From an uncultured Planctomycetales bacterium (lineage in GTDB: Bacteria; Omnitrophota; Gorgyraeia; Zapsychrales; JANLHA01), in contig CAZWOH010000002.1 of NCBI GenBank assembly GCA_964635405.1, forward strand, positions 1-43,076: a stretch of 43,076 nt of DNA. The letters run 5' to 3'. Shown piece by piece: positions 1 through 42,400 of this stretch; the first letter of the stretch is position 1; each line of letters opens with the position of its first letter. The notes below the pieces were generated by a model. That model had not been told where the DNA came from and ran no database searches. It saw nothing but the letters and a program-made list of their open reading frames with translations. The position numbers and the translations under genes were made by a program.

Positions 1-473
1 CAAAGGCCAAGACGGACGCTGGCATCAACCGAGTGTTGAGATTTGAAGATAGACTATTAGGTTATGACTACGTTGGCATCATCAAGAACCTGCCTGACAT
101 GATCGTTCAGATCGTTTCCGTACCGTTTGACTACGTGATTGATTCCCGAGTGAAATTATGGAATGCAAAAGATAGCTTTGGGGCATGGGCAAAAGCCAAG
201 ACGGACGCTGGCATCAACCGAGTGTTGAGATTTGAAGATAGACTCTTAGGTTATGACTACGTTGGCATCATCAAGAACCTGCCTGACATGATCGTTCAGA
301 TCGTTTCCGTACCGTTTGACTACGTGATTGATTCCCGAGTGAAATTATGGAATGCGAAAGACAGCTTTGGGGTATGGGCAAAGGCCAAGACGGACGCTGG
401 CATCAACCGAGTGTTGAGATTTGAAGATAGACTTTTAGGTTATGACTACGTTGGAATCATCAAGAACCTGCCT
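1..473 (+). repeat. In-frame 189-bp (63-aa) tandem repeat, >=2.5 copies, probably continuing upstream of the window
   Basis: Units lie at nt 6-194, 195-383 and 384-473 (partial; it diverges after ctgcct at 473). Nt 1-5 (caaag) match the tail of a unit (gcaaag), so another copy probably lies upstream. Unit peptide: AKTDAGINRVLRFEDRLLGYDYVGIIKNLPDMIVQIVSVPFDYVIDSRVKLWNAKDSFG(A/V)WAK. Copies 1 and 2 differ at 5 of 189 nt (cta/ctc, gca/gcg, gat/gac, aaa/aag synonymous; gca/gta Ala/Val). Confidence 0.9.
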
Positions 474-9400: not shown

Positions 9401-12400
9401 TGAATATCAGATCACGAAGTCGGGCAGTGTTTTCATGCTCACGCTAACTGAACTTTACAAAGATTTTATCAAGCTCACCTTTGGCCAGATTCCGGGTGTT
9501 GGCGTGCTCTTTGGTGGCGATCAAGCGCCGCGCGTTCTGACGAAGACCAAAATGGACGCTTATTATCAGCCCGGTCAGCGCGAAATGAGATTTATGCTCG
9601 ATGCTTATAGTAATGATAAGAGTGATGTTCAGTTTGTTTCGTATCGCTGGAAGGCCGACGATAAGGGCTTCCCAGTTCCTTTACTCGATGGTCAGAAGCA
9701 AGAATGGTTTGTTACCTTGTATAAACGCTGGAAAGATGATTCCGGAAATATCCATCGTGAGGAGTATGGGACATTTATTCGTTTCTTAACTTTACCCGGT
9801 GAGAAAAAAGCGGTTACGGACGATTTCTTCGCGCTTCCGGCGAATCATGGTTATAAAATGGAGCCGGGACAAGAATATGTCTTTCCGTCGATGGCCTCTT
9901 TGCAAAGCATGCAGGATATGTATGATGTGCGCCGCGGTGTGGACAGCCAGACCGGCGAGGTAATTTTGGCTGGCGCATTTGATTACACAGGAAAGCTTAT
10001 TCGCAAATACTATAAAGCGGACGGTTTGCCCCAGACTTTACCGGGGAGCGGTTATGAAAAAGACGGCTTAACAACTTATTTCGGTCGCGCGATCGTTAAA
10101 AATATTCCTTATTTACCGGTGTTGACCAATGGTAAAGATAGAGAAGGAAAATATATTCATCCTATCGTGATATTTAGTCAAGAAGCGGCTAGACAGGCTT
10201 ATTGGCTTCATACTCAAGAACAGGATCCGAATGTGACGGCTCATATTGTGACCAATCGCGGACGCAGTATTCCGGTTACCGGTGATATTAGTAAGGTTGA
10301 GCAGGAAGTATTGCAATGGGAGTATGACAAAAATGGATTGGCCATTAAGCCGGATGTTACTTTTGAGCGTCTTAAGATTTTTGAACAGACCACCAAATCC
10401 GTCGTCAATGATCGTGGCAATAAGATCGGATTTAATTCAGAAGATTTCACCGTCAAAACCGCCGAAACGACACTTAAAGATATTAGCAGATTGAGCAAAC
10501 AGCCTATTGCTGCTGACATTTTGATTTCGGATCCGATGCTTACAATGAAGCAGCCGGTGCAGATTTATCAATTTAATGGTCAGCGGATTTTGGTGGTCAA
10601 TACCGATTTATTAAAAGAACAGGTTAAAGAAGCTCAAGTGCTTAATGATGTTCAATTAGATATTGCGGTTAGCAATATTAGTTCTTTGGCTGTCGATCGC
10701 AGTGCTTTTGAAGCGGCTGTTGTGCAGCAAAGCAGTACGCGTTTAGAACGCACGATGACGATGCCTCAGGGCATCAAACTTGTTAAAGATTCGCGTTTGC
10801 AGGCAGGAGAGTATGGTATTCTCGTCGAGAATACATCACAGAAACCGATTTTCATAGCCCATTTACCGGGACGTTCAGTATATATCTATACCATGGAAGA
10901 GTATCGCAAATTAGTCACGACCCTGCAGAAGCCCGGGCAAGACATTACGCTTGTTTGGAAGAATAAGGCTGGCGAGGTGGTCGGTAAACTTGAAATCGCT
11001 TCGTATGCGGGTAAACAACCGACCACTTTGATCGTCGACGGTATGGGGCTTCGTCCCGGTGAGATCGGCGTTGGGGAGTATGGCGCGAACTTCCCCGATA
11101 TTGCTAAGAAGATTAAAGAATCCGACGCATGGGCAGCCGTTGAATCACCCAATGGAGAGATTAAAGTTATTACTGATCCTAAGGATCTTCCGTCGACAGA
11201 AAACAAAATAGTGACGATTACGCCTAAAGAAGGCCCGGCTCCTGCAACTGTTGGCACAGATCATATCGCTTCCCAACAAAAGAATTTGCCTGCTGTGCTC
11301 AAACAACCGGATAATAGTACCAAGGTCGTCGGGGTTTTTGATCTTGGAAAGAAAGAAGACGGTAATCGTAAGGGCATAGGTGTTTCTATAAAATCTGGTT
11401 TGCCTAATCCTGAATTACGCAATGGCCAGCCAATGTATAACGATTTTGAAGCGATGAAACCGGAAGCTGGCGGATTAGAAGCAACGGAACTTAGCTATGA
11501 AATTTCTGTAGCAGTTTATCGAATCATTAGGACTGTCGACCAGAATGGCGATAGGGTTACGATCGGAGAAAAACTCATTGAGCATATGAACAAAGTCTTT
11601 AGCCAGCCGGGCGCGGCTGGCGTTGGCTTCTTCTTTGGCGGAAATCTGCCAGTAGCTTTGAGTCAAAAAGACTTTTCGTACGCTCAAGAAATACAATTTA
11701 TCGCGCCGGAAGTTTTGCGTGCCGCGGGCATCAGATACGACGGCAAAGGGTATTTGATTCGTGTTGAGCAAAACGGAAAAGAATTTACGCGCACCTTGCC
11801 CGGCAATGCCATGGTGATCTTGCCGCAAGATTTCAAACTTTTGGAAACGAATGTGGAAAGCCGCTATCCGGTTATTGTGCAGGCTAATGAGAAAACGATT
11901 GGAGAGAATTTAGTTTTCAATAATGGTGTTGGTGCTTTGCGCGCTCGCGGCGTAGGTTCTATCCCGTTGACCCGCGAAATGCTTAAAATGTTTACGGATA
12001 ATAATCCTTACAATGGCACGCTCTTACCGATTCCGACGTACACGTTTAATGAAAAGACCGGCGAAATGAACCAGAAGATGGTCGTCGTCAACTTCAAGGT
12101 TAACGGCGTTGATGTCAGTGGGGCTATGTTGGACTTAGGACGCGAAGGAATTGCTTATATGAAACAGTTGACTAAGACGACCTTTACATTGCCGCTCAAA
12201 GAAGGCAATGCGACTTTGGGGATGGAAGAATTAAATCGTCGAGCGTCGGAGTTTGGCGTCGAGTGGACTAAGGATAATCGTTTGTTAAGCATTCTTTCAA
12301 TGCCTGCCGAAAAAGCTAATCCTCAAGCACAAAGCTTTATTGATCTTGGTGGACGCAATCGTGTGGCTATTGGTCTTTCCGATGATTTTAAGACGATAGC

Positions 12401-15400
12401 CCAAGCGTATAAGAGCAATGGTCTTTATATCGTCAACGGTAAACTTGTCATCGCTTCGCAGTTGTCAGCGCTAGAGCGGGCGACTTTGAGTGCCCGTGAT
12501 CAGGCGATGATTCAAGTTGTTGGACCAACCATGCCGCTTTTTGGCCGCTTTATGACTCGCGGACAAATACAGGATTTAGCTAATCGTGCGCTTGCTCCGA
12601 TTGCCGGCAAGCATTTGCCTCTGCAGGCTACGGGTACAGATAGCAATGAGCTGTATCCGTACTATTATGATGCAAATTTAAATAATCGTTATGATGAAGA
12701 TGATCCTATTGTTTATGTTGCCAAAGATCAACAACCGACGGGCTTTGTGGCGCTTGAAGCTTTGTTTGTTGAGCCTTTTGTTCCTGCGACGGGAACGTCA
12801 TTACCTGCGGTTATGCCTTTAGCGCCATCGGGTTCTATGGGGTTGTTTAATGCCTTGCCGCTTTTAGGCAAAGCTGTTAGCGATGTGTTTCGTGCTTCTG
12901 TAGTAGAAGCCGCGGAAATTCCTGTGTCTGTTAAGCCTGTCGCAAAGTCCTATGGTTTGGTATATAACCCGGGTGTTGATTCCGGTATTTTGGAAGTCAA
13001 TGCTGCGGGCAAGAAATTTTTAAATTCCCTTGAAAAACAATATCAGGATAGTTTGGGTGTTGGACGCGCGAAAGATAAAGGCAGTGTTCGTATGACGCCA
13101 GAACTTTTAGCGCAGATTATTAATTTGTCTGCGGGTCGTATTGAAGTTACAGGTGAAGCTGTAGAGAGCGACCTTGGCCAAGCACGATGGCTGGGCGAGC
13201 AAGCGGTCTTTAAGCTTAAACTGACTCGTGATTTAGTCATCAATGGTGTGGTCGTTCTCCCGGCTGGTTCGATTTTAGAATCCGGCGTTCGCGCTAAAGA
13301 AATCTTTGATGCGATCGAAGCTGTTGCCAACATCAAGGGCGATCAGAGCAAACAAGACGTTTTAAAGAAATTACAATCGATCTTTAAGGGCAATGAACAG
13401 ATCGTCAAAGAATTTGTTGACCGTTATTACGGTGCGACGATCGCCCGCACGCCGCAGGGCACAGTCTTCGTCGAGAATAAAGATTTTGTCCGGTATTTTG
13501 ATTTAAATCATGGCGTCATTTATATCAAAGGCGAACCGGTCTTGCGCGACGGCAAGCCGGTTTGGGAAAACGGTCGTCAGGTCTTTAAACTTTTATCCAG
13601 CCGTGAAATTCGACTTTCCGACGGGACATTGATTCCAGCGGGCACGGTGTTGGAGACCGGCAGCGGCACTAATGAGCTTCTTAACTTATTAACAGCGGTC
13701 AGCGCAGGCTCAAAGTCAAAGGATTTCTTGCGTCAGGAAATAGTCAAGCGCCGTGAGACCTTTGGCATTGATAAACAGACAGCGCAAGAGTTTGTCGAAA
13801 AATATTACGGCGGAGTCATGGCTCGGGGTGTCACGCACACGGTCTTTTTGAGCGCCCGTGAAGCGGCGCAAGCCTTTATCAATTTAAAGATGGGCCGCAT
13901 TGCTATCAGTGGTCAACCGGTCATTATGGATGGTCGGCAGTTGCTTAAGAATGACAAGCCAGTGTATAAGCTTTTGACAGTCGGCGAAAAAGAAATTGCC
14001 GGCCGCGTGACCTTGGCAGGGAATACGGTTTTGGAGGTTGGCGTAGAATTTCAATCTTTGCTTGATCTTCTTGAGGGCACAGCAAATAGCGAGAAGAGTA
14101 AGGAAGAAATACTTGTGCAGTTGATGGAGCATGGTTCATTATTTGAAGAAAAGTCTTCTGGCCCCTGGGGCATGATTGGCTCAATCTTCTACGAGTCAAA
14201 CATCAAATCTTTCGTTAATCGTTTCTACGGTAATCCGCTTTTGCGTGTGTCTAGGGGAAATACTCAAGGAACATTCTTTATGACTGATGAGCAGTTCCGT
14301 CGCTGGATTAGTCTTACAGATGGCTTGATTGATATTAGTGTCGAACCGGTTCTCGTCAACGACCAAGAACTTTGGAAGAGTGGCAAGCAAGTCTTTAAGC
14401 TAACAACAAATAAAGAGATTAAAATTGCTCAAGGAGTAGTTATACCAATTGGAACAGTTGTGGAGATTGGACAAAAATCACGCTCAACAAAGATTCTAGA
14501 TTTGATGCTTATGGTTTCTGAGGGCGGAATGGAAGATGAATCTTTTAATAAAATTGCTTTAGAAAAAGAATTGATGGCTTACAAAGATGTTTTGGATACT
14601 AGCCGGGAACAGATTCATGAATTTATTAAACATTTTTACGGCAATCCGGTGTTGCGGACTAAATATGGAACGGTCTTCGTGCCTGCTGATATGGCTAAGA
14701 AGTTTATTAATTTTAAGAATGCATGGATCAATATTGCCTCTGAATCAGTCAAGAGAGACGGCAAGGATTTATGGGTTGAGGGGCATCAAGTCTTGCGCAT
14801 GATTACTCCGTTTGAGATCAAGCTGGGGGGTAAGGTTATTCCTGCTGGAACGGTTTTGGATGTTGCTCCCGGATCTAAATATGATGAATTGCTCAAAACT
14901 ATTCAGGCTGTAGGAAACGGTATAGCACGGGATTCTGATAAAGAGAAGGCGGATTTAAGTCTGAGGCTTTCGAAATTTAAAGATGAGTTGGGTGCTGATG
15001 AAGCTAAAATTAAACAGTTTGTTGAGAATTATTATGGTCATGGTTTTTTTCAGGTGAGTAATGGTGCCCAAGTTGGCACTTATTTAGTCAGTGAAGAAAA
15101 TTATCGTCAGCGGATTAATCCGGGCAACGGGTGGACTTATCTACATGGTGAACAGCTCGTCGAATCTGTAGATGCCCAGACGGGTATTAAAAAATATCGT
15201 CATGGCCCCGATGGAGAGGAGATTTATCTACTGCGCACTATTCATCCCATGGATGTGAATGGTGGCGACAAACTTCCTACGGGGGTTTTATATGAGCCAG
15301 GGATTAAGTCTTTGGCTGCAGAAGAATTAACAGCCCTGCGCAAGAAGGGCTTGGAATCTGGAATTTTCCATACTGATAAAGGTTCCAGAGTCGGTGATGC

Positions 15401-24400: not shown

Positions 24401-27400
24401 ACCAAAGCTCTCGAGTGCTATGCAAAAAGAAACTTTGGAAAACTTGAAGTTGTTTGCTCAATACCCAACTCATAATCGCATGATGTATACGCGCGTTCCA
24501 CTTCCGATTGTTTTTCACTCTATTGATATTTTCACTTGGGTGCATGAAGGCTTTGTAAATCGTTTTAAGACCGCAAGTGACAATGAGGAAAAAACTACAG
24601 CCGCCGCAAAGGCCTACGAGCCAATCCTTCAAATCTGGAAGACTTCAGTCAAGCCTCAAAATCAAGCAGTTGATCAATATAAATATAAGTCAGCGCAGAG
24701 CCCTGATGTTGTCGCTTATGTCAAAACTCTCAAGGATAGAGTTATGTATTTGAAGGTTTATTTTGCAGATCTCGCTTTAGCGAAAGAAATGGATAAGAAT
24801 TTTCAGAGAAATATCAATGTTTATCTCCAAGTTCTTAAAGATATTGAGGACGCTTTGCAACAAAAAACGGGGCAATCAGATTCCTTATATCTACGACGGT
24901 TAGAGGAAATTGATTGGGAATTGACAGAGATGTCCTTCTTCCCGCATAAGCCTGTTAAACGTGCTAGCTTAAAGAGCGCAGCTGGGTGGAACACCCTTAA
25001 CGGGATTAAAGTCAATTTAGGTAATGTTGTCAGTAAGATTTGGTTCTCTGTAAAATCAGTTATGAGATTTTCTCGCGATCGCGTTTTACATATGATTGGT
25101 GTCGAGGATACATTTATTGCATTGTTTGTTTATGCTTTCATGGTTCCAATGGCAATTTTGACTGGCGTTTTATCTATTTTAAAGCGGATTTTGGTTGGCT
25201 TAGATCGCGTTTTTCTCAGAGGATTTGCAAGAAAGAAAGTGATAAACATTTGGCATAAACAAGAAGCCACTGGTGCGGCACTTTCTGGTTATCCGGCTTT
25301 GCCAATGTCGAAGCGTATGGCTTTAAATGAAAAACATACGCTTTATAATTTTGGTAAAAGTTTAGGTGGTGAGAAATCTATTAACGAAACGGATGAAAGT
25401 AAGTCGCTGGATTTGATACGTTTACTTCTGGACAATGATAAACTTGAAGAATTTATTAAGTCATCAGCAAACAAAACTTCTACCGCCTCCAGCTCAGCGA
25501 TTGTGGACTTTAAAGAACTCGAAACAGTCCAATGGTCTAAAGAGCATCAACCTAAATCTTCTAGTTCGACACTGGACATAAAAACTTTCCCAATCCTTGT
25601 TTCTGCTATTGCGGGAATGCAGGATAAAAATATTTTGGTGACGGTGACATTGAAAGACGCAACAACTGGCACAGTTGAGATTAAGTTTGATTCTCCGTCA
25701 GAAGAAGACGTTTTAGAAGCTTTACAATATGCTTTTGATCAGCAAAGACAGAACGAAAAAGATATGAAAAATTTAGTGGCTTGGTTCCCAGCGCCTGAGA
25801 AAAAGCTTTTTGGCATGATGACTAAAGCGCCTGTGAGAACTTTTACTCTTCGATTCCATGGCATGGCAGGCAACATCGCTTACGTAAAAGATAATACCAT
25901 TTATGTTTCTCATCATGCTCTACGTGCGCCACCAGTCTGGGAATTTAGCATGGATTACAAACAAGCCCGCCGTAGATTCCTTAACATTATCTTTTCTGAT
26001 GAAATTGAACACCTTCTGTATCCAAACCAAACTCAAGCCACGACTCATCAGCATCTGATTGCCCGCTTGGGAAATAATCAAGACGATGTCATGGCATTGT
26101 ATTATTTCGTGAGCGACATAAATTTTGTTGTTAACAATGAAGATTTGCAGGGTCTTTTAGAAAAAACATCGGCACAAAGATTAGCTAATTATTTGGCTGG
26201 GCAAGGTTTGACTGTATCACAGTTAAAAGCCGGTGGAAAAAATATCAATGATTTAGTCGTTGCCGGCAACGATGATTTAAATACATTAAGAGCTGTTGTC
26301 GAGTTATTTAGCAATGGCGTTGGGCAGAGAATTATTATTCTTGGTGGCTTCGGTCGGTTGACGATATCTTTAGTTAGACGAGCTGTCAAAGCTGGGTATA
26401 GTATCCAATTATCAGCAACAGAACAAATTAATAGTTCAAATTTTGCAGAGTTTGAAAAGCGGGTCATGCGTGCTCCACGAGCCAATGATCTATTAAAAAT
26501 CAGCGAAGCTCAGATTATCAAGCAGATCATGTTTCAAATTATTTCTAAGAATTATCCTGCAGTAATTCAAAGATTCCAAGAGCCAGGCCGTATTGTCATC
26601 GAAGAGTCTTCGACAAATACTCTTGATAATTATAAAAAGTATCATGACTTTCTCGTTGAGGATGCGCGTTTTAAGACACAAACTCAACAAAATCAGCCGT
26701 GGACTATTGTCAACATTAGCCACCCGTTGTTAGAATTTCGTACCCAAGCAACCTATCAAAAGGTTTTTGAGTCACTCATTGCCCAAGGAAAAATCCGCGG
26801 GACATCTTTAGCGCAAGAATATCAAGTTAATGGTTTGGAACGCTCGGTAAGAGAAAGACTTATTGACGAGGTGTTTAGAATTATTATTTATTCACAGCAT
26901 GAGGATATCCGTATTTTATGTGGTGAAAAGAAAGGTTTAAACGCAATTGATGCAGAATATTTTCTGGTGGCAGTGGAGTTATTTAATGGACTCAATGAAG
27001 ATTATGAAAGAAATTTATTAGCTAATCAGCTTGTCGCAGCGTGGGTGACATATCCAGCAAAAGGGCGTTTGTCCGAAGAACAAATGCGCGCAGGTTTATC
27101 ACCTGCTACGTTGGAATTTTTTGAGACGATAGTTGCTTTCTTTGATACAAAAGATCTCTTGAATAAACAACAGGAATCTACCGTCGAAAGAATAGGTCCT
27201 AAAAGTTTTATGGATACCCCAGTTAATGGATCATTTGTTGAAACAATCCCCGTTGACCGGCTAACGAAAGAGTTGGAGGACAGGACAAGGGCTATGCGTT
27301 CACCTGAAAAACTAACAGCTGAGCTGGTTGGGCGTGTCTTAAAGGCTTATAGCAATAATACAGTTTTGGCTGAATGGCATCTTGCCACCTATTTGGTTCA

Positions 27401-30400
27401 AATTCGTGCAAATCGGCATTCTAGCCCAGAACAAAGAGCGGAAGATTATAGAATAGTTCGCAAAGCGATTGCAGATTATAAGCATACCGGAAAGATTGAA
27501 GAATATTCCCGTCCGGATATCCCTGTTTTACGTCGGAACGTTGAAATTTTTGGTGTTCTTTACGGCGATTCGCAGGATGAGGCAGCACTCAACAGGGTTG
27601 CTTTTTTTAATAATCATATTGGAATTCATAGAACGTATGGCGACTTTAAGATAGGTCGCTTTGATTTGAACCCAGAAGCATTTTTGAGAGTTGATGATCA
27701 AGGTGATCTTTACTTCGATATTTTATTTTACAGATCCAAAGAACCATCGAAAAAAGTCATTCTTTCATCCAATGACCCAAATTTGATTGAGCCGGATCTA
27801 AGTGATGTTGATCAAAAAGACGTGAGCAATATCCCGATTTATGAAAGAATTTCTGCAGAAGATGCAGGAAATTCTCTCGCTGAGCCATTCTTGCCGCGGA
27901 TAACTTCAATTTATGGCGCGGGTATTTTAGCTGTCCTTCCTTTTGCACCAACAGAATGTTTAAGTGTATTCGCACAACATATAAGCAATATCATTCACCC
28001 TTCAGAAGAAGATATGGTTAACGTGCTTAGTCGTTTCAAGACAATTCCAATAGATATTGTCGGAGTTTCGACATCAGAATGGACTTTACTGCCCAAAAAA
28101 GCTTATGAATATATTTTCCGTCATCTTAATAAGTTATATGAGGATGATGAAGAAACCGGAAAGCAATATCATTGGTTAGCATGGATACACACCCATCCCT
28201 ATTATTCAAATATAGATCATCAAATAATCGCACCGCTGTTTACATTGCTGGTGAAAACAAAGCTTGCAAAATATCACTATGATAATAGAAATATTTTTCA
28301 ATATATGTCGCCGGGGGACATAGAAAATGCATTAGTATTTCCAAATATGTCAAGGGCTTGGAAGCTTCCAGATATTCTTTTAGGGGAAGTAATTATTTCT
28401 GGAATTCAAGTTATAGATGAGGACTGCAGGGCTATAGGTAAACCCAATTGGCACGATTTTTATATGAAAGACAAGCCCGTGTTGGATGAATTATTAGATT
28501 TTGCCAGCAAAGCAAATAAAGGATTTTCGACTGTCTTTCAAGAAGGTGAAGAAAGGAGGCTCCCTGAGTCGATTTCTATATTTTATGAAACAATGCATCA
28601 TTGGTTGCAAGAGTCTAGAGAAACAGAACGCAAAGGAGAACTGATAATCGTTTCTTCCACCAGCTCTCCTATCACCTCCCAAAACAATACCGCGTCGTCG
28701 GTTATCCCCGCCGCCAGCGCGGCGGTAACGGTTGAGGACGTTGTTTTAAAGCAGCTCTTTGCACTCCGCGGCAATATTCCTTTTGGCTCTAAAGGCCTTG
28801 ATCAGGCAAGAACACCATTAAGTGAGACGGGATTAACTGAATCGGATTTTGAGATTTTTTACCAGCTTGCCTGCGTTCATTATTTGGGCCAACATCGTAA
28901 AGATAAGCCAAAGACGAGTTATCTAGTTCATATTTTAGACGGGCTATTGATCCTTATAAATCTTCTAAAGGTCAGCGATCCCAACGCCATCGCGGCGTTT
29001 TATGTGCACGATACGGGTGAGCGATCTGCATTAAATGAGAATCAAGCGTATCCCACGCCTGAAATGCTGCAAACGGTTGAAGAAGATTTGCGCGAGCGTT
29101 TGGGACAGATTAATGCGCTTGATGTGGAGCTTATTATTAAGTATTGGAAGCTTCTGACCAAGACAAAGGTTAAATTTGTCAAGTTTGACATGGTTCCCTA
29201 TCTTTCAGAGATAGCTCAAGAGGGCGATCTTCTGATCCTCGTCAAATTAGCCGACCGAATACAGAATTTACTCAGCGATCAATATTCCAATAATAGACAA
29301 TTGGTTGAACGCTATATTTGGGAAACCATTGAGTATTTCTTGGAAACGCCATTGACTCCAGCGGGCAAGACGTTTGTCGGAAGCCTGTCAGAACAATGGC
29401 AAGGTGCTGGCAATGCCTTTAGACTTATGTTGATTCAGTCGCTTATCCTCAATTTTAATAAACTTCAGGGGATTCATACACCGGCAGATGTTAAAGACAC
29501 TATTTATAGAATTATTCCACAGATCAATTTAGAGCGCTATGCAACGTATTCTCCGTGTCGATTATTAGATCTCGCCTTAGATGATTTGAAAAATCATAGC
29601 GCTAGCTCGGCGATTGATTCGTCCAAACCGCAATATCAATGGAAATATGGAATTAACCAAATTGGCAGCCACAAGACCGTACAATCTAATATTCTTCGTC
29701 GAGCAGAGACGATGATTGAAGAATTGCAAAAAGTTTCGGTTGCGGGCAGTACGGTTGATCAAAGCTATTTGACAAAGAATATTTTTGGGAATATTAGAAT
29801 TAACGGCAGGGTGGTTGCATTTTGTGGCCACGTTGTGGCAGGCGATTTGATGCGCCAAGACGAAGAAGCTTTAGTAGCTGGCTTTAAACAACAATTAACA
29901 GAATGGTTGTCGAAGTTCTCCGGCGCGCCACCGGGCAGTTTAACACAACAGCTCTTTTCAAATTTTCGTGTTCTTGTTGTTTCCTCCCCCAATGTTTTTT
30001 CAATAATTAAAAATAATTCTAAAAATCCGCAGGTTTCAAGCTCATCTTTGCAAGTTGTAAGTCCTGATCAGTTAGCAGAGTATGGGAAGATTAGGCCCAT
30101 CGAATACAAGCCAGATCCTTCTATCTTAGTTATATTTGATAGTCATTACTGGACTGAAGAGCCGCGTAATCTCTTAGATGAAGAACAAGATATGCTTGAG
30201 AGGTTGATTTTTGGGGACATCTATTTCCAAGGGAAAAATGTTTTTGTCTCTGAAAATTGGGATCTGACTGATGGAGCTTTGATGGCGGTAGCTGGTAATA
30301 GAGCTGTGATTATTAATCGTTTTGTTCTCGATAATTTATTGAAACAGCAAGATTCGTTGTCGGCAGGAGAGTTTGAAGAACTTGTCAGTTTTTATAAAGA

Positions 30401-33400
30401 TATTGTTATCGGTATTCATGTTAACTTGCGTTTTGTATTCTTTGATGAGGAAGAATTGCATGAGGAAATGATCCGTCGGTACATGAAAGATAATAGAGGA
30501 TTAACTATAGCTTTTAAAATCTTGGATCAGCTCAATCAATATAATGTTGTACTTAACAAGAATTTTTTGGAGTCTTTCCAAAGACTTCGTCGGATGCTTC
30601 CACAAGGACAGGAATTAGTAATTTTTTGTCCGAACGTATCGTTACCTAATAACCCAGCTGTGGATTATATGGGAGTTATTTTTCAAGCAAAGTTAGGGCA
30701 TAATTTGCGTGGTGAAAGACAAGTTCCTGTTAAACAACCGATCACTGGTAATGGTTTTAATGGGGATTTAGAGCAAAGGGATCGTTTAGCCGAGACTTTG
30801 TTTGATGCCGTGTCAAGGATTTTGGTCGGCGGGGAAACTCCTTTGGTGTTGTTTGATTTGGATGATACGTTAAGCCATGGGTTTGGCGGACCGCTGCATG
30901 AAGGAATTCTTGACTTGATGCAGCAGTTAGCAGGGACGCATGTTGTTTTTGGTATTAATACGGGTGCGGATTTGCCTTGGGTAAGTCACCGCGTGTTAGA
31001 TTTAACTCAAGAAAAGTTTATTATTCCTGTTCTTATCTTGAGTTCCGGACGTCAAGTATTGATCTGGGATAATCAACGACAAGCTTATCGAGTCTATGAG
31101 GTGGATAAAAAAACCAATAAAGGAAAAAGTACACTTGCGCTCATCAGCAAATTAGGTATTAAAAAACAAAGTGTGATTTATGTAGCTGATTTCCCAGGAT
31201 CGGAGGATAAAAAACAAGCTGGGATTGATGACAGTATGCTTAATCGAGGGTTTGGTCTCATTGTTTCTGTTGGGCCGCGTCATGATTTTAATGTAGAAGA
31301 AAACACAGTGTTAATACAGACCCAAAACTACGGAATAGTAGGGCCGCAGGCAACAGTCGTTTTGATGCAAGTTCTGTCGGATATGTTTCATAGGCCTATG
31401 CCAGCAGTTAAATTGAAGAACGTCGCAAGCAATCTTTCAGCGAGCGGCCGCTTAATTTTTTCTCCAGCGGCTATGTTAGGGGATGAAATAAAAATAAGTA
31501 TCAGCAACGATTCGGATACTATCACAGTGCCGGGTAAGGGTAATCTATCGTTACAAATTACTGATGGTTCCCGCATGGCTTATGCAGGGGTTGAGCGCAA
31601 GGATCCTCAAACCGGTCAGGTCACGTGGGAAAAAATCTATGCGATTCCGATGATTCGTGTTAATGGACATCGTGAATTAGCGATTCGCGATCCACAAATC
31701 AATGTCTGTTTGTTTTTGTCTTACGGATCTTCGGTTGGGCTTCAAAAGCCAAGCTGGCATTCTCGTAGACCTTTGAAGATCGCTCGTGTTGATGAAGTTG
31801 CGAGTAGATATAATTATCAATTTGACAGCTTTACATCTTTTGAAAATTTGTTGTTATCCCTAAATGTTATTCGAGAGATTATGGAAGGTTTATCGAATTT
31901 TGATGGGATTGAACTTATTCAAGGCCGTAGCCGAAGTGTAGTTTTTCGTACGGCCCGAGGAGATTTGATTATAAAAATGTATAGTGCAAAAGATTCTGGT
32001 GATTCTAGATTCGCACGGGATTTGTTATTCGTAACTACTTATAATGCTGCTCAAAATGCTCATCGGCCAACGGGGTATTCAAGTCAAGATCGCTTTTTTG
32101 TCGTGGAAGTGGATACAACTGCTTTAACCTTAGCTGAGTGGATGGCTTCTTTAAGCGATAAAGATCAGTTAAATAAGGCAGTTTTAGCTATAGCTAGCGG
32201 CTTAAGGGATTTTGGTTCTATTAGTTTTTATGAATTTGGAATGATTACTAGCAATGGGCCTAATCCTGACAGTAATGATTTTGTGCAGATGGATGAAACC
32301 CCTCAAACTTACTTCCACTTTGAACGAGAGCTTATACATAGGATTTTAAAAGAGTTAGGAAACATTGGCTTAAAAATGTCTAACCCTTCGCTTTTGGATG
32401 ATTGGCAACAAAGGATATCCACCCTTAATTATTTTGTTTTGAACCACGGAGATTGGAGTCCTTGGAACATTCTTGTTGATCAGGATGGTCGTCTTGTGAC
32501 CGGAATAGATGGTGAAGATATCTTGTCAGCCCCGCCAGAGAGGGATATCGCAATATCATTGATACGTTTGTTTGATACCTCTTTTGATATGCCATTAGTC
32601 AGGGAAAATCTTAATCGATTATGTGAGTCATTATTGGAAGTTTATAATGAAAATCGTCGAATAAATTTTGATGTTCTGCCGTTTTTTCTTGCTTTGGCGG
32701 CCTTGCGAAATGCCAGAGGACAGGGGATTGATTTTCGAAATCAAATACGCGCAAAGTTAATGCTGAGTTTGGCAGAATATTTCCTTAGCTTTTCGACGGT
32801 TGATCGGCGCAATGTTTTTCCTGTAACAGAAGCTGTATTTAGAGTCGCAATATTTGATTCAAATGCCCATGTCCAAATAGCCGGGTCATTTAATAATTGG
32901 AAACCTTCTTCTGTGGATTGGCAACCCGTTACAACTAATACAGGAACATTGGTCGCCTTGGAAGCACGGTTATCTTTAGTCGCAGGAGAGTATGCTTATA
33001 AATTTATTATCGATGGCAGATGGATTGCAGATTCCAGCGCAGGCGAAATAAAAAAAGGCAATATGATTTTAAGATTACCGTTTCCTGCAATAGAAAACGA
33101 GCAGCATCTTGAGACAGATACCGCCTCCAGCGGGGTTCACTATAGGCCAGTTAATTGGGGCATTTTGGTCCGCGATATCCGCGTTATCGGGTTTGATTTG
33201 GACGACACGTTGTATAACTCGAAAATCCTTATGCAGGAGTTTAGGAATTGTATTTTTTATTTTCTGGCTGAACGTTTAAAGACAAATTATACCGATGCCA
33301 AAGAACATTATTATGAAACAAAGAAAAAAGTCGCACAAAAATCAGGAGGACAGCCGCTTGCCATTGAAGTTCTTTATGAACTTGGAGTATCTCTTCAAGA

Positions 33401-36400
33401 GTGGGAAGAGTATTCTGATAAAAAATTTTCTTTTAAGAATTATGTTAGATACGACGAGAACCTGCATAATCTGTTAAGAGAAATCAAGAATTTGGAAATA
33501 AAGATTTTCTTATTAACTAATAATAGCTTGAATCAAACACACGGTATTTTAAATGCTTTAAAAGTTTACGAGTTGTTTGATTTAATTCTGACTAGGACGC
33601 ACGTGCCTCTTAAGCCTAATCCAGAGGGATTTAAAAGAGCGGCAAAACATTTTAAAGTAGAGCCGCATGAAATTCTTTATATGGGAGATAATCTGCGAAA
33701 TGACTCGGATTCTCCGAAGGAGAATGGTAATCGCGCATTAATAGCGATGATAGAAGATTCTAGTATTTATTACGTTTTGGGGATGTTCATAGAACATCGC
33801 AAGCGCAGAGAAGATCCGAATTTCAAGTGGCATTTGGAAGAACTGATGAATCGGGAATCTTCTGCTTCTGGTTCTTCCCCAATTAACCTTGGGTCCGGAC
33901 GAAAGCCGGCGGAGGTTATGCACGCATTGCGCTTATATGAACAAGCTTTTTCTGACGGACAATGGATCGATGCGATGCGCTTGCTTTTTGTTTTTGCTCA
34001 TCTTCCATGGGTTGCGGATAAACCTCTAGCGATTGCTAATCAGATTGCGCAACACATAGCAGATTTACGCAAACAAATTCTCCAAGCCCAATATCCGATT
34101 GAACATGCAGATAAATATGTTTTGCTTCATATTTCTGATAAACATCAAACGATGACGACACGTAACATCAACCAAGCTTTCACGGATCCGCAAGTTTTTA
34201 GTGATCCGGCAAAATTTTCCGCATTGTTTAAAGATCTTCTCGATTTGCGTCGAGAAGTCGCGGATGATTTTAAGCCGCAAGCCACACTCGCTCTTGCGCA
34301 GGCGCGGGAGCTGATTTGGGCGCGCGCGGGGGATGTCGAAACTTTGGTTAGCATGTATTCTGTATATGAAGAAACCGCTCGGGCGCTTTTGTGGAAATAT
34401 TCGCCGATCGATTTGTCAGCAGACCAGCGCGCTTTCCTGACGGTAGCTGCAAAATTCGAAGAAAGCCAGACGATGTTGTCAATAGAGCGGATCTCGGGAG
34501 AGATTGCTTTGTCGCTCAATGATACGCAAAAGATTTGGCATGAAATTCGTGAAATCTTCAGGCGTAACGCTATTGATAAACCACTTAAGGAACTTTTAAA
34601 CGGAATTTGGCAACATGAAGATATGGTTTTGTTTGAAGGAGTTATTTTAGGTGAAATCAAAGATTGGGTTAGAAATAATCGACAGGCTCTTGTCGAATCT
34701 ATTGGAAACGAATTTGTGCTTTTTGATCAGCTTGTTAGACATGTTATCGCAGAGTATAAGACAAAAAATCCCGGACAACGGATGCCGCCGTATAAGGACA
34801 TCGAAGCTCAAGTGGCACAGATCATTTCTCCAGCGGATTTTAGCACTAAGCGCGCGGCGCCGGATAAGAAGCCTATTGTTCTGACTGCTCAATCTGCGTC
34901 GGGAGAAGAGTGGCACTATAAAGTTTTTATCAGTCGGGAAATGGACTCAAATCTTTGGCAGGATAATCAAGCGGTAATTATTTCAAAATTACAAAAATAT
35001 TTGACGATTGCGGCAACAAATGGAAAATGGAATACAGATGATTTTTCTTCGGAGTCTATTTATCAGATTTCTCAGCGCGGAGTAAGAGTTCTTAAGTTCA
35101 GAGAAGGTGCGAAACGTTTTGCTGTGGTTGTCATTAGTGACCCGCAGTTGCTGGCGCAGGGACGGTTTTTTATCAATGCGAGTTTGAGAGATAAACTTAA
35201 AGGTCAGGAATATGAAGATTTTCTTTTGGGTTTGATTAGTAAAGCACAAAAGAACCAAGGTTTTGTGCCAGCGGTAGCCTCCAGCGCGGCGGTGGATTAT
35301 GTCGAGTTACGCGCTAAAGGATTATTGTCGGACCCCGTTGTGGTGAGGGTGGTTTTTGCAAAAGGTCAGTTGACTGTAACGGGATCGAATGGGATGGGAC
35401 AAGATCAAGACGCCGTTGTCGAGGGATTTAAACAACAATTAACAGAATGGTTGTCCAAGTTCTCCGGCGCTCCGCCGCTTTACGGCGAGAAACAGGCGTT
35501 TTTCTTTATTCTGCTTCGTGAGGTTTCCATCCCAGTAATAGTTTCTCCAAAGACAGCTTCATCTGTAGTCACCGCCGTCAAAATGAGCCCGTCGGTCGGC
35601 GAACGTGTCCCCGTTGTCCCGGGACAAGAATTTTTCGTTGACATTGTTGTTCAGACAAACGGTTCTGTTAAACAAAATCAGTTGAGGGTAGAGCTTTTTA
35701 CCAACATGAATCATTCTGGTAGTTGGACTCCGATAGAAGTGAATTTAGAAAATATATCTTTGATTTCAAAAGGCAAGGCGGGGCATTTTTATCATGCGCA
35801 TGTAATTCTTCAAGCACGCCAGCCTGGAAAATTTGCTTTCACCGCCCGGGCAAAAATTTCCGATCAAAAAGAATTCGTTTGGGTAGGTGGGGATGCGACG
35901 GTCAAGGTATCTCTTCTTCCCGATTGGTTTAACCCGGCTACGTTTCATTCGGAGTATACTTATACACCGGACATTGCGAAAGAAGGGTTTGCTGATAATT
36001 TCACCGGCCTGTTAGGCTACATCAAAAGTCAAAAACAAGTTACCCGCAGAAATGCTTTTTTCCTTTCGCCGTTTTTCCCAACGTCGAACGTGTCGCCGTT
36101 TTCTGCCGTGTCTGTTTATGTTCTTAATCCTGCCTTGATTGACTGGTCAGCGGTGGTGGATGCGGGGCAGACTCATCTGGAAAAATCCCATGCCTTTTAT
36201 CAAAGCGCCTCACAAGAAAGAAAAGAGCAGCTAAAGCGTTTTGCCTCTCATCCAGAGGTTGGCAATTACGCGCATCATATTTTGCGCCGGATTCGTACTA
36301 GCAAGTGGGTGATTTATGGTGTTGATTATGACAGTTTAAGTGAGCTGGGCGATCAGGAAATTTATGATTTTATTGTTTATGAAGAGTTTGTTGCTTTGGA

Positions 36401-39400
36401 ACAATTTCGTGTTTTGTTAACGAATTCTGGTGCAAGAATTTTAGGCGATTTGCCGTTTTTCCGTTCTTTGGATGGCACGGATGCTTATTATCATAAGGAA
36501 TATTTTGTGACAGAGCAAGGGCGCATTGTAAGCCCGGGCATTGATAATCAAGTTTGGGGAGATTTAGCAGCGTATGATGAAATTGGTATTGAGAAATGTT
36601 GTTCAGAAGGCCAGATAGATCCAAGGCTTCTTGTGATTATTTATTGGCAGCACATCTTTGAGAGAGTTTTTGATGATCCTGTTCCCAAAATAGCCGGCTG
36701 GCGGCTTGATGCGTTTCATTTTTTTGGGCGTGGTCCTAATGCTCGACGGGTCATTTGGACAAGCCGGCTTTGGGATGATATTGCTTATTATGCACAAAAG
36801 CATAATCTTTTGATGATGACGGAACAATTAGGAGGTGATGACACAGCATATGAAAATCTTAAGAGGTTGGGTTATTGGCAAATGGAAGTTATACGGTCTT
36901 GGGGGAGAGGCAGCACGGTTGAATTTTATTATGGGAGACTATTTGATGCTAGCCGCAAAATTGCTTATACAACGGCCGAAACGCATGATGTACAGCGGTG
37001 GGCGGCAGAATATCTTGAGGACTTTATGCGCTTGGCAAAAACGAACGATAAGGCTCAGGCGCTTGAGCTTTTGGGTCCTGCCTTTTTGGGCTTTTATATT
37101 TTGGGCCCGCGAGCGGAAGCAGTGTTATTAAGTTTGAGTGATATGGCAACTTTAGATCCGATCAAGCGTGAAGTGTATAACGAAAAAGGCATGGTTGTTG
37201 GCTCTCAATGGGGCACAGAAAAGATTGGGTCGGTGGATCTTTCTGAGATGATACGCAGTTGTGTGGATATTAGAGAAAATCATCTTGCGATAAGCCGCTC
37301 TGAAATGATTTATCTTGCGACGGGTGATGTGCACGTGAAGGCTTTTCTTAAGAGATATGAAAGCGATGTTCTTGTGGTCATGGCTAATTTTAGCAATATA
37401 CAGAGACTAGCTCAAATTTCACTTTCAAGTTCGGATTTGGGCTTGGAGTTTCTCAATAGAGATCAGCATTCTGTTGTTGTGCAGATAGAAGATTTGATAA
37501 GTGGGCAGATTTATCCGCCGCAAGACTTGGGATTAGAGAATTGGATAGAATTTAAACCTTTTCTTGTCCCCGGACAGTTGGCGGTGTTTCATATGCAAAA
37601 CAAGTTAACAACCATTGCCGCCTCAGCGGTCAAAGAGGCAACAGCAATTTTTTCCGATAATTCCATACTTTACGAAGCCACACTCCTTAATCAAGTTGTT
37701 TCTTATACCAGAGCTGTTTTAGCCGCAAACGACAATATTCTTGGGACAATGATGTGCTTTGCAGCCTCCTTTTATACTCAAAAAGTAGCTAAAGATTTGA
37801 TAAATGATGACACTAGTATTATTAAAGTACTTAATATTAAACAACTTTTATCATTTCCTACCGCTGCTTCTTTTATGGGACATGCTCTGGTTTTTGTTAT
37901 TTTTAAGGACAGCCAAAGAATATATCTGCTTGACCCAACGATACAGCAATATATTTCTTCGCATGCGGCGTTATTATTAGAACCGCGCAGTGATTTTCAT
38001 GCGAGACTTTATGCGGTCCTTTTGAGCAATGGTTTTGTTCTTTATTCAGGGCATGAAATACAGATTATTGAGATTTATGCGAGAATTATTCGCATGGGTG
38101 TATATGCCAACCCGCAGCAAGTTTCTCGTTTGGTGGAGGATGCTGAAAGTTCGCAAGAACCGGTCTCTTACGACTATCAAAGTTTATTTTTAAATCCTGA
38201 TGTCCAGACGTATTTATCGCTTGTCAAAAATATTTATAATCAATCTTTGAGAGCCGAAGTTCATGGAAAAACTATTCATCAAGCGATGGTGCGAATTTTA
38301 AATAATGCAAAATTATCAGCGCAAGGCAGAGATATTGGCATTTTAGTTGACTTGGCCATCAAAAACGCCAGCGCGCCTGTGACCGGCCCGCCGGCAAGGG
38401 AAATTGTTGGTGCTTTGGCCGCCTCGTTTTTCTTTTTAACGAGCCCCAGTTTTTCTGCATCGTTTTCAAAATCCGTATTGCCAGATTCCGTAGCGCAAAT
38501 CACAGAGTCTCAAAAACAAATCCTTCAAACAGCACTGCCCGGCGTGTTGCCTGCGCTTTCTTTAGCGTTTAAATCGACATCAGATAATAAACCTCAAATG
38601 AGCACAGATTTAGGCCCATTAGTTCTTAATGGCATCGATCCGGATATGTTTAAAAATGTCAGAGAATTGCGCATTATCGCCGCTGGCGGAGGTGGCGATG
38701 TCGATAGCGCGATTCTTCTGGCTTTAGGGTTGCGTCGAATTCTTGGCGAAAATATAAAGATTGTTATTTTTACGACCAACGTCAAACACGCTAAAGAAAA
38801 CCCGATGGGCTGGCCGCTTTCCGTCGGAAATATCATTAATATCAGAACCGGTCAGCCGATTAAGCCTATCCCGGGCACGGAACATTTTTATCGCATTGTC
38901 CCCGGGCTTATTGTTCGAAACGAAATTTTGGATGATACCGACCGACCGTATCACGCACAAGTCCCGCTTTCGGATAGTCAGATGGTTGCTCTTGGGCTTC
39001 CGCAAGGAATTGAACTTCTGATGATCGATGTCAGTCAAAGCGCAAAAGATTTAGCCCAAGATTATTTACGCTCGCAAGGCGATGATGTTAACGCAAAAGA
39101 GCGTGTTCTTATCAGTCTTGATGTCGGCGGGGACAGCCTTGCGCGGTTCCCATACTCAATAACTTCACAGAATAAGCCGACGCATCCGGAGCGGTTTATT
39201 TGCTCGCCGGTGACAGACCTGATTATTTTGAATATGGCACGAGAAATTGAACGCGTTTTAAAAACAAACGTCTTCTGGGCTGTTTCGGCTTTAGGCGGCG
39301 ACGGAGAATCAACGCCGAAGGTGCTTGAGTATATGCGCGAATATTATGCGGAGCAACAGATCGTTGGCGTTTTGGATAATATTCGTTTGTTTAATGAATA

Positions 39401-42400
39401 TATAACCCGTCAAGATGCCCTTGTTTTGTATCAAGCGCTTGCGACGATACCCAGTGAAGTTTCAGGAAACCTTTTAAAACGTCTCTTCGCCATTTCTCGA
39501 CGGCTTGATGAAATTCGTGGATTAGTTGATCGGCAACAAAAGGTAAAACTTGTGCGTTGGGTGATGCGATCGCAATATTCTCAGCAAGGTTTCCATCCTC
39601 AACAAATGTTTGACGCCAATTATATGACACAGGCCCTTGCCCCAACATTGGCAGATTCACTGAGAAATGGGACTCGTCGCGAGTTATTGGCCCGGGCGTA
39701 TCCGTTGACAGTTTTCTTCTGTCCGTCGTCGATTGCGTCAAAAGTTCGCAATCGTGATTTTGGCAACGCTAATTTAAATTGGGAACAAATGGAAAGGGCT
39801 CTGCGGAAATTTGGTTACACGACGGAAGTGTCTGATTCGCAAATGATTCGCGAATTGCAAAAAGAAAAGACTGCTGCAGTTGTCGTTGCCGCCAGTTCGG
39901 TTCTTTTATTAAGAATTTTTGGCGGTAATCAAGAACTTGTTGAGCAATATTTGCAAAATGCCATGGCGACTTTAGATCTAGACAGGCCGCAGGTGGAAAA
40001 CGGAATCTTTGCTCCTTCTTTGGCCGCAGAGAGCCGAAAAGACGCCGATTCCTATATGCAACAGGATTCGGCAGTCGGTCTGTGCTTAGGCGGCGGGACA
40101 GGGATGATTTATCTGATTAATGCACTTCGTGAAGTTTTCCCAAGAGAATATGCAATAAGAGCAGGGCTTGCCGCTATTGATAATGGAGGTTCAAGTCATG
40201 CAATGGCAGAAGGTCTTCAGGCGGCTGGCTTTGGAGTCCCTTATCCTTTCGCGGATCTTCTTAGCCAATTGCAAGCGCTTTCAACTTTGGATAAATCCTA
40301 TCGTATTTTGGATCCGCAGGGCCGCGTGCAAGTAACGACACTAGACTCTAATCTGCCGGAAGTTGACGAAGAAGGTCATGCTCTTAGGGCAGGACAAATT
40401 GTTTTTTATGACGAGAATAATAGCCCTATTTACTTGGAAAATTTTGAGGAACTTATTATTCGTTTACTTGAACGTATCGTCAAAAATTTCTTGCCGAAAC
40501 AACAGTTAAGTGATGATTTTATCTTTTTTGCCATAAGCCTGCTTAATCTTATTGATTTGGTTAAGCCATATATTGAGAAAGGCTATATCAAATTGCCGGG
40601 TTTAAGCATACGAAATCTTTTGCCGATAGCTGTTATGGAATACATGGGGCTTATTGACGTCGATAATCCTAAGTATAAGCAGGGTGCGCGCAAGCTAATT
40701 GTTACTAATCAAAAAGATATGCATCGGCTTGAAAAAGGTCTTGATCTTATCGCGCAGATGATGGGAGTTCGTCAAGGCCGGGTACGGCTTTCGCATCTTT
40801 ATCCCGAGATGGTATATGCGATATATGCGGACTATGTGATTTTAATAGACAATCCAGAAAATCAACAAAAAATTATTCTTTTGGTCCGTCGAGAAAGTAA
40901 AAAATGGCTTGTGCGCGTTTGGGGAGAAGATGCTCAACATTCTGCTAATTTTGCGGGAGAACGTCTTGAAATTTCGTTGACTGACAATTTATCTATATAT
41001 TTTGAGGGCAATTTAAAAGGTTTTATTTTTTCTTTGCAAGCGCAAAATGGGCAGATACAGATATTTCAAGGATCGAAAAAAGCGGTAAGTCTTGTGGTTT
41101 ATAAAAGTAAAAAATATTTGATGTCTGATGACGGAACAGGGAGGCTAAAGCGTCTGGGGGGAAAGGACGCCTCCTATGAAGCTTTAGAAATTAACGGTTA
41201 CAGCGTGTATATTCGCTCCCCGATTATAGTAGGGCAGACGCATATTACAGAGACGGCTAATTATTCCCGTATTGTAGAATTTGGTCTAGCCAGACCCAGA
41301 GGTTCAAACGGTCGAATCACGTATAAACCTGATCCGAAAAGACGCGCGGCAGCTAACAGCGGATTTTTGCAAAGCATACTTTCACCAAATACAAAGTTTA
41401 TAACTTTAGGTCCGGGATCCAGACTTACGAGCAAGAAGATTCATCTTCTTGTCGGCGGCATTTCAGAGGCTTTAGCTGGCCGTTGTAAACGCAGTGATAT
41501 CCCTATTGTTTTATTTTTAGGGCCGACTTTAGATAATGAAAGTTTTGGGGATAGACTTATCATGGTAATTGAGAGGCTGGAAAGAACATTAAGGACGGAT
41601 TTTAATAAAAAACCGATATTTACAGATTTGGTTATTGCTCCTTTGGATACGAGCACGCTCGAATTTGCGTATAGCGTAGTCGGTCCGCAGCCTGTTGGTT
41701 GGTATATCGAGAAATTATTAAACGACGATGACAGTATTAAGCAAGCTGTTATTTCAGATTTAGATTTGCGCTATATACAGATGCTTATCGAAAACTATCG
41801 TGCTCAAGAGCATTTTGGGCAGGCGATTGTGGATATTGATGGCGCAGAGATTTGGTTAGAAGAAGGCTACAGGGCCGTTTCGCTTCGCGATTATCTTACG
41901 TTTAAAATCGCGCAATTTTTAGATTGCGTCAACCAAGAGCCTAAGCCCGAGATACGCCAACCCGGCGATCCTTCCAAGGAAGCCAAAAAGCCGCGCGGTT
42001 CATTTACGCCTTCGCCTGCAGAACTTGTAGAATTTAAAAGACGGTATCCAAATATCCGTGTTTGGACAGATGTTTTTACAACAGGAATTATATTTACGCC
42101 GCCACGCGATCCTCGTCAGCCGCCAGCGCCTAAAATCGGTTACGTTAAACATAATCCAGAGCGTCTGCGAGAACTTTTAAGGCTTCCCGCATCGGAAACG
42201 TCCGTCGCCAGCTCGGGAGTTATTCATAATTTGGCCGCGAATCGTCAAGAGGTCATTGAAACGGCGATCAGTGAGTTTGTCCGCCTTGGCATGGAGTCCG
42301 TCGAAAACACAGATAGCTTTATTGTCCTTCTTCCCGGCGGAAAAACAGCGCGGGATTTTTATTTAGTTTTTGCGGCGCGAGTTAAAGAATTGATGAGTGT

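Follow-up and report, generated by a model that had tools for sequence, protein, structure and literature searches.

Polyserine linkers are long, near-homopolymeric runs of serine found in secreted enzymes. Other very long products carry processing sites, among them those of viral polyproteins and the Leu-X sites that the cysteine protease domain cleaves in MARTX autoprocessing toxins. In carbohydrate-degrading enzymes, including those of Saccharophagus degradans, Cellvibrio japonicus and Teredinibacter turnerae, polyserine linkers keep the modules apart (Howard et al. 2004, as cited in PMC2386152). Among the giant proteins of Omnitrophota, class 1 has been described as a 'multi-enzyme metabolic cluster' (Nielsen & Lui 2026). 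The subject of this analysis is a short serine motif, built around Ala-Ser-Ser (ASS), in a 43,076-nucleotide (nt) stretch of contig CAZWOH010000002.1 (assembly GCA_964635405.1, uncultured Planctomycetales bacterium), hereafter the window. The entire window is a single stop-free open reading frame (ORF; nt 3-43076, 14,358 codons, open at both ends); amino acid (aa) numbers below are codons of this giant ORF, and nt numbers are window positions. The ORF matches the multi-enzyme class of Nielsen & Lui (2026) and fits the giant genes of West-Roberts et al. (2023). In its C-terminal tail, the ASS strings represent repeated occurrences of one short junction peptide of fixed residue order, which stands at the N-terminal edges of enzyme-sized modules; these junctions are also the seams at which relatives have gained, lost or swapped entire modules.

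The original prediction listed six close copies of the motif and several looser ones, and translation in the giant-ORF frame reproduces each of the six close strings at its stated position (Table 1; the second, at 28689-28739, falls within the SSTSSPITSQNNTASSVIPAASAAVTVED stretch). ASS occurs nine times in the window (aa 405, 8495, 9564, 9867, 11041, 11759, 11852, 13297 and 14069). Eight of the nine lie past the last predicted transmembrane (TM) helix, so that the claimed confinement to this part holds with the exception of the copy at aa 405. As for the proposed consensus, an [S/T/V]-A-S-S-x-hydrophobic core is supported, but its [DH]-[YF] ending was over-fitted and is not general. Taking the window together with two relatives described below (L003 and L007+L008), 69% of 29 sites have Leu, Ile, Val, Met or Phe two positions past ASS, against a background of 32%, and the residue preceding ASS is Ser, Thr or Val in 17 of them. 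One motif is found about every 370-460 aa. All-serine variants also occur, such as SSTSSP at aa 9551 and SSSP at aa 6540; another serine string, SSSD at aa 12475, sits within the GH77-like module and not at a seam.

The claim that the motif falls where modules meet stands at every site where a boundary can be placed. Such evidence exists for aa 11041, 11759, 11852, 13297 and 14069, and also for the looser sites at aa 11286 and 12538, while aa 8495, 9564 and 9867 lie in orphan sequence and are excluded from it. The motif sites are located 0-40 aa upstream of module starts. Thus, TASSG falls between the end of the CBM48 domain (about aa 11012-11020) and the HAD start at aa 11059, and alignments with stand-alone HAD proteins begin at residues 2-5 of the latter, opposite aa 11058-11062. 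The GH77-like module starts to match the relatives P0053, L003, L004, L005 and L007 at aa 11854-11856; the P0053 alignment (36% identity, E 2e-112) runs from aa 11856, opening 2 aa past the window ASS and 7 aa past an SSSS of P0053 itself. Since the first match of the 6PGL/NagB-like domain corresponds to position 83 of its profile, VASSGVIHNL lies near the N-terminal edge of that domain.

Comparison with relatives, which were found by module-based searches of genome contigs, places the seams more precisely. L003 is a 9.3-kb contig from the metagenome-assembled genome (MAG) SRP278252_co2_854, and shows 55% identity to window aa 11050-11842. The nearest relative, L007+L008, consists of the first 24.5 kb of a 65-kb contig from MAG SRP278252_co1_150 (run SRP278252), and is a stop-free ORF of 8,179 aa, the first 4,846 aa forming the L007 part and the following 3,333 aa the rest. 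Both MAGs are labelled 'uncultured Planctomycetales'. L007+L008 is 39% identical to the window in the HAD module, 82% in the small domain, 47% in the GH77-like module, 76% in the DUF1152 module (its aa 6599-7058) and 59% in the CofD-like module (its aa 7629-8179). L004, L005 and L006 are sequences from Omnitrophota MAGs, and the proteins P0053 and P0064 come from the same kind of source. No collinear homologue was found in protein collections, where a HMMER search with aa 10801-12000 returned per-domain matches only; homologue searches with aa 8400-9900, 11030-11870 and 14040-14358 each gave no match, a scan of metagenome contigs with an alignment found no relative, and an exact 30-mer was absent from the genome contigs.

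Seven homology breakpoints separate the window from L003 and L007+L008 (aa 11050, 11289, 11759, 11826-11856, 12542, 12789 and 13290-13304), and an ASS or SS[AP] motif is present at all seven, in one or both sequences. All four window ASS sites in the region with homologues lie within 10 aa of a breakpoint; the breakpoint zones make up 6.9% of the comparable region (permutation p 2.5e-5). Module X, of 445 aa, has 271 of 439 aligned residues identical in L003 and is absent from L007, in which homology stops at aa 11289 and the sequence reads HFASSPR directly followed by ASSAAVDY. At the position of the window TASSV, both L003 and L007 carry an inserted GDE module some 530 aa long. Homology of the GH77-like module with L007 stops at aa 12542, where the window reads IAASAV and the relative KASSTV; this L007 copy, DKASSTVL, sits 19 aa before a starch-synthase domain. 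DUF1152 homology opens at aa 12789 with NASAPV in the window and RSSAPV in L007+L008. In the latter, a 555-aa insertion falls exactly past the conserved AASSVL (breakpoint aa 13290-13304), and the insert itself opens with SSS.

The original prediction had also called for conservation of the motif in homologous giant ORFs, and the orthologous junctions of L003 and L007 do keep it. Before HAD (aa 11041) the window reads DTASSG, L003 DSASST and L007 GASSAIGKASSQ; here ASS is kept in all three, with a linker that is otherwise unalignable and an upstream module that differs in each. Between HAD and module X (aa 11286), ESSASGSSPINLGSGRKP of the window corresponds to ESSALSSSPINLGPGRKP of L003 (SSALSSSP), module X being absent from L007. 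Where the small domain begins (aa 11759), VASSAAVDYVELRAKG of the window corresponds to RASSSTVDYVELRAKG in L003 (RASSSTVDYV) and RASSAAVDYVELRAKG in L007 (RASSAAVDYV). Beside this, it was observed that the peptide INLGSGRKPAEV(M/V)(H/Q)AL opens module X past HAD in the window (33882-33930) and in L003. In L007 (about 3475-3520) the same peptide stands alone between two serine motifs upstream of HAD, and so looks like a portable mini-element.

Replication in L007+L008 was pre-specified. In the L007 part, ASS is the first of 3090 tripeptides (11 against 1.58 expected, p 9e-7), and the next 3,333 aa of the ORF, fetched later, hold eight more against 1.58 expected, giving a total of 19 against 3.16 (p 1e-9). 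The permuted tripeptides SAS and SSA are enriched only about 2-fold, compared with 6-fold for ASS, which indicates that the order of the residues matters. About 15 of these 19 sites lie in sequence without detectable homology to the window. Their placement repeats that of the window: ASS is found 1-37 aa upstream of HAD, starch-synthase, alpha-amylase and Ig-like domain starts, including sites 20-27 aa before HAD, the one 19 aa before starch synthase, one at the start of the small domain and one 1 aa before the inferred alpha-amylase start, and an SSS run stands about 7 aa before a methyltransferase. More distant multi-enzyme proteins of Omnitrophota use SSS(S)-[L/P] in place of ASS. SSS is the top tripeptide in L005, P0053, P0064 and P0051, mostly as SSSSL or SSSP, and in P0053, P0064, P0051, P0016 and P0134 such runs stand 7-25 aa before response-regulator, PGM or HAD domains, or just past GDE_C. 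Ahead of P0053, an N run in L001 (2514-2526), a scaffold gap, marks an apparent gene boundary, and P0053 and the 837-aa product upstream of it may be parts of one larger ORF.

Taken alone, the window gives borderline support. ASS occurs nine times in the full ORF against 4.5 expected (rank 225 of 5061 tripeptides), and eight times in the C-terminal part against 2.2 expected (rank 8-9 of 3403). The information in its flanks reaches z 2.1-2.9, which ranks 20th of 320 comparable tripeptides. In a discovery-matched null, in which the best residue class at five flanking positions is chosen for every tripeptide and the same search is run on shuffles, the real tail has ASS with its flanks as its highest-scoring pattern, but one to three of 60 shuffles match its score, so that the shuffle control proposed for the motif is passed only marginally. 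All-against-all clustering of 9-aa windows with BLOSUM62 did not recover the motif, because small residues score too low in that matrix.

Table 1. Junction motifs, modules and the last transmembrane helix in the C-terminal part of the giant ORF, in order of position.
Feature	Codons (aa)	Window position (nt)	Strand	Context
Last predicted TM helix	8374-8393	25122..25181	+	Kyte-Doolittle scan
TASSSAIVDF	8494-8503	25482..25511	+	first junction-type motif past the membrane part; carries ACCGCCTCCAGC; orphan sequence
SSSST	8519-8523	25557..25571	+	all-serine variant, 25 aa past TASSSAIVDF
SSTSSPITSQNNTASSVIPAASAAVTVED	9551-9579	28653..28739	+	Ser/Thr/Ala/Pro low-complexity stretch of ~30 aa with two motif copies
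SASSAIDSS	9866-9874	29598..29624	+	77 aa before partial small-domain copy A
Partial copy A of small domain	9943-10002	29829..30008	+	53% identical to aa 11792-11848
SSSSL	10012-10016	30036..30050	+	immediately past small-domain copy A
CBM48 (AMPK1_CBM)	10955-11012	32865..33038	+	Pfam, PDB sequence search
TASSGVHYRP	11040-11049	33120..33149	+	linker from CBM48 to HAD
HAD phosphatase module	11059-11243	33177..33731	+	Pfam, HMMER
SSASGSSP	11286-11293	33858..33881	+	junction of HAD and module X
Module X	11296-11740	33888..35222	+	mostly helical; comparison with L003, L007
Small domain B	11756-11851	35268..35555	+	bracketed by VASSA and TASSV
VASSAAVDYV	11758-11767	35274..35303	+	start of small domain B; carries GCCTCCAGCGCGGCGGT
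TASSVVTAV	11851-11859	35553..35579	+	GH77-like homology starts here
Ig-like + GH77-like 4-alpha-glucanotransferase module	11856-12542	35568..37628	+	Pfam match from aa 12021
IAASAVKEA	12538-12546	37614..37640	+	degenerate copy at the end of the GH77-like module
DUF1152-containing module	12789-13290	38367..39872	+	DUF1152 itself aa 13003-13158 (Pfam)
VAASSVLL	13296-13303	39888..39911	+	seam of DUF1152 module and CofD-like module
CofD-like module	13304-13853	39912..41561	+	weak Pfam match
VASSGVIHNL	14068-14077	42204..42233	+	~110 aa before first matched position (profile 83) of the 6PGL/NagB-like domain
Glucosamine_iso/6-phosphogluconolactonase-like (6PGL/NagB-like) domain	14181-14302	42543..42908	+	Pfam

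The DNA that encodes the motif has two faces. On the one hand, all six Ser codons are in use at ASS and SSS sites, TCN and AGY codons are mixed in 19 of 28 ASS sites (window, L003 and L007+L008) against about 47% expected from codon usage, and no nucleotide consensus emerges from the SSS motifs of other lineages. This heterogeneity of Ser codons suggests selection at the protein level. On the other hand, the nucleotide string GCCTCCAGC, reported as shared by three window copies, is indeed found in these three (25485, 33123 and 35277) and extends to L003 (1463) and L007 (2353, 3523 and 4336). The counts are three in the window against 0.19 expected, three in L007 against 0.07 expected, and one in L003. 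All copies share the strand, which is the coding one, and the frame, and each is at a junction; the string uses the least frequent Ala and Ser codons of the gene, with a codon-usage expectation of about 0.0035 per site. Such exact sharing is not predicted by protein-level selection alone.

The string is kept at the pre-HAD junction of the window, L003 and L007 despite the unalignable flanks; in L007, 14-nt direct repeats, GCGCCTCCAGCGCG, lie on both sides of the HAD module, and the window copies at 33123 and 35277 flank HAD together with module X. GCCGCCAGCGCGGCGGT, at window 28710, agrees with the sequence at 35277 in 16 of 17 nt. From GCCTCCAGC onward, window and L007 share 24 of 27 codons identically at identical residues, compared with about 50% elsewhere. 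About 80 nt are near-identical between window 35277-35357 and L007 4336-4416, while the neighbouring modules are only 39-47% identical in protein. Allowing one mismatch brings no enrichment (10 copies against 6 expected).

Several origins for the string or the motif were considered and discarded. RNA structure was rejected on fold z values of -0.9 to +1.7, and no Rfam family matched in the window. A rare-codon or GC-rich island at the junctions was rejected as well, GC content at third codon positions (GC3) being raised in the five core codons alone. The same applies to a relic Shine-Dalgarno or start-codon origin, since GGAGG occurs on the opposite strand only and the codons ahead of ASS differ from ATG by more than one step, and to an artefact of stop- or serine-codon reassignment, which is at odds with the use of all six Ser codons at the sites. 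For the reverse complement, GCTGGAGGC, a Chi-like reading was set aside on account of its orientation relative to the GC skew. The sharing of GCCTCCAGC is accounted for by none of the explanations tried.

Serial duplication of a linker plus a small domain had been offered as a source of the motif, and survives for one pair only: small domain B and its partial copy A. The other downstream modules are unrelated enzymes: HAD, GH77-like and 6PGL-like in the window, starch synthase and alpha-amylase in L007. A hidden Markov model of the small domain found no further copies, including past aa 8495 and 9570. The TASSV at aa 11851 takes the paralogous position of the SSSSL past copy A, so that the two versions of the motif, ASS and SSS, are linked. 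The two copies of the small domain also share an identical stretch of 18 aa, GFKQQLTEWLSKFSGAPP (window 29880-29933 and 35424-35477), conserved in L003 and L007. Its DNA differs at 4 positions in 53 nt, which suggests gene conversion or strong constraint.

The remainder of the ORF gives the tail its setting. A Kyte-Doolittle scan predicts hydrophobic clusters at aa 160-1050, 6437-6465, 7074-7190 and 7860-8060. The only Pfam matches in the first 8,400 aa are an SLT transglycosylase (aa 2597-2697) and an M23 peptidase (aa 2800-2889), adjacent to each other in the membrane-associated N-terminal part (window 7791-8669); the pair fits the cell-wall-degrading role proposed for giant Omnitrophota proteins. 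Pfam matches in the last 5,960 aa further include a fragment of an APH-type kinase (about aa 10808-10874), and PDB sequence searches with four window segments returned CBM48 as their sole match. At the very start of the window (1-474), a 189-nt (63-aa) tandem repeat is present in 2.5 copies of 97% identity, which gives rise to a periodicity of the tripeptides DYV and VLR at aa 11-159. GC skew is positive in all 2-kb blocks of window 1-42000 (0.06-0.23), and the cumulative skew climbs without a turn. Besides the giant ORF, the only ORF of at least 150 aa is one of 171 aa with a TTG start on the minus strand (34145-34660), which, antisense inside the giant ORF, is probably spurious. PGQ is the most over-represented tripeptide of the full ORF (10 against 1.7 expected), and is scattered over aa 1114-12523 with no obvious common context.

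The reading favoured here, with chances that we judge about evenly balanced, is that the motif is a minimal ordered serine-rich linker between the modules of the multi-enzyme tail of a membrane-anchored giant ORF. The motif would act as a small, polar, unstructured hinge directly ahead of the strand or helix with which the next module opens. Such a hinge would insulate the adjoining folds, and the seam would thereby tolerate the gain or loss of modules. The peptide would be held by selection on the protein, in line with its heterogeneous Ser codons, and may be regarded as a very short, ordered relative of the polyserine linkers in modular carbohydrate-active enzymes. The comparison with AlphaFold that had been proposed for the motif lends weak support: motif sites lie in coil and in or near local minima of the predicted local distance difference test (pLDDT), with aa 11041 within the lowest-scoring stretch, but the single-sequence model itself is poor.

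A number of observations weigh against this linker reading. A passive hinge does not need a fixed order of residues, nor a wording that is specific to each lineage (ASS, SSSSL or SSSP). The 8,400 aa of the membrane and extracytoplasmic part hold one ASS against 2.2 expected, the motif being essentially absent there, and L004 and L006, themselves giant ORFs of Omnitrophota, show no enrichment of ASS or SSS. The motif is missing at the junctions of small domain and GDE and of GDE and GH77 in L003 and L007, and AASSVLLL (aa 13297) sits in a hydrophobic stretch with no obvious linker. The AlphaFold2 model, with a mean pLDDT of 35, is not a confident one. To this is added the exact occurrence of GCCTCCAGC in 7 of the 22 ASS sites first examined (30 sites in all with L008). 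Lineage wording and shared string suggest that, beyond flexibility, the motif is also read or generated by something of greater specificity. Order, wording, restriction to the tail and the shared string are all left unexplained by a passive hinge, and thus keep a protease, a modifying enzyme and a DNA-level adapter in play.

Small residues at P1 and P3 suit the general preference of Ser-Lys dyad peptidases, and a dedicated protease could cut the giant product into enzyme-sized pieces at candidate [A/S]-S-S-x-hydrophobic sites. This would explain the single site for each enzyme-sized module, just ahead of the module start, the limitation of the motif to the tail past the last TM helix, and its ordered and lineage-specific wording, as expected from co-evolution with a recognition partner. 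Cleavage of giant proteins has in fact been proposed, with the cleavage points stated as unknown (West-Roberts et al. 2023). Some junctions nevertheless carry no motif, and no candidate protease was found in the window, where only the M23 peptidoglycan peptidase and SLT were detected, or in L007+L008, both ORFs being incomplete; processing at these sites is a possible, if rather unlikely, function. The serines could instead be putative acceptors of phosphorylation or O-glycosylation that regulate or protect the seams. They are invariant and followed by a hydrophobic residue two positions on, kinase-like (APH) and phosphatase (HAD) modules occur in the same tail, and an exposed position in a linker is plausible. 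APH and HAD families, however, act mostly on small molecules, and the motif fits no O-glycosylation sequon among those tried, which makes a modification site very unlikely.

At the level of DNA, the in-frame string (ACC)GCCTCCAGC(GCG) could serve as a recombination or microhomology site for module exchange, in which case ASS would be its mere translation and the sites with other codons its decayed copies. The excess of GCCTCCAGC and its strand, frame and placement speak for this adapter, as do its retention upstream of HAD between different upstream modules, the GCGCCTCCAGCGCG repeats around the L007 HAD, the window copies around HAD and module X, the match of 28710 to 35277, the tract of codon identity with L007 that opens exactly at the string, and the fact that all module insertions and deletions break at motif sites. 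Yet unrelated codons, often with TCN and AGY mixed, encode about 23 of 30 ASS sites, among them all eight in the additional 10 kb from L008, and neither the SSS motifs elsewhere nor the one-mismatch copies bear the string out. Moreover, homologous recombination of the RecA type needs more than 9-14 nt, neither a recombinase nor a flanking structure was seen, and there is no RNA structure, Rfam match or wider GC3 island, so that an adapter is distinctly unlikely. Chance, with ASS as an ordinary product of Ser- and Ala-containing sequence picked post hoc, would agree with the modest tripeptide and flank ranks in the window, the shuffles that match the score and the failure of BLOSUM clustering. 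It has already been largely refuted by the replication in L007+L008, including its later-fetched sequence, by the coincidence with breakpoints and by conservation at orthologous junctions within otherwise unalignable linkers, and is hardly credible. A bolder and unlikely combination would make [A/S]-S-S-x-hydrophobic a lineage 'grammar', in which the peptide is a candidate signal for a dedicated factor, most plausibly a protease, and its coding string a shuffling adapter.

The motif offers a marker with which it can be tested whether giant bacterial proteins work as one chain or as cut pieces, its sites being precise candidates to look for in proteomes. As a seam marker readable from sequence, it would provide a rule for splitting dark giant ORFs into foldable units, and direct evidence of evolution by insertion, deletion and swapping of whole modules at defined seams. 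The lineage-specific wordings could serve as a handle for finding a co-varying protease, kinase or recombination factor. If true, the combined reading as signal and adapter would explain both the growth of such genes and the conversion of their products into working enzymes.

With Omnitrophota giant multi-enzyme proteins, the window shares a stop-free ORF of more than 14,000 codons, several clusters of predicted TM helices, the SLT and M23 domains, and a tail occupied by HAD, CBM48, GH77, kinase-like and sugar-phosphate enzyme domains, its relatives also carrying starch synthase, GT1, amylase, GDE, radical SAM and HD domains. It differs from those published in that the MAGs of its nearest relatives carry the label 'uncultured Planctomycetales'. 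West-Roberts et al. 2023, Nielsen & Lui 2026 and Seymour et al. 2023 make no mention of a serine motif, a linker or a junction peptide. The motif resembles the sites of polyproteins and MARTX toxins in that they are short, recurrent, weakly defined peptides in the unstructured seams of a very long product; unlike in those systems, no processing protease was found in the window or in L007+L008. With polyserine linkers, the likeness is that both are serine-based separators of modules, both are associated with carbohydrate metabolism and both are lineage-specific alternatives to Pro/Thr linkers. In contrast to polyserine linkers, the window sites have two to four serines and not a long run (the longest in any relative being S7, in P0064), their order is fixed (A-S-S-x-hydrophobic, SSSSL, SSSP) where that of the linkers is an order-free composition, they are located in the tail of a giant ORF past its last TM helix, and some copies share an exact 9-nt string.

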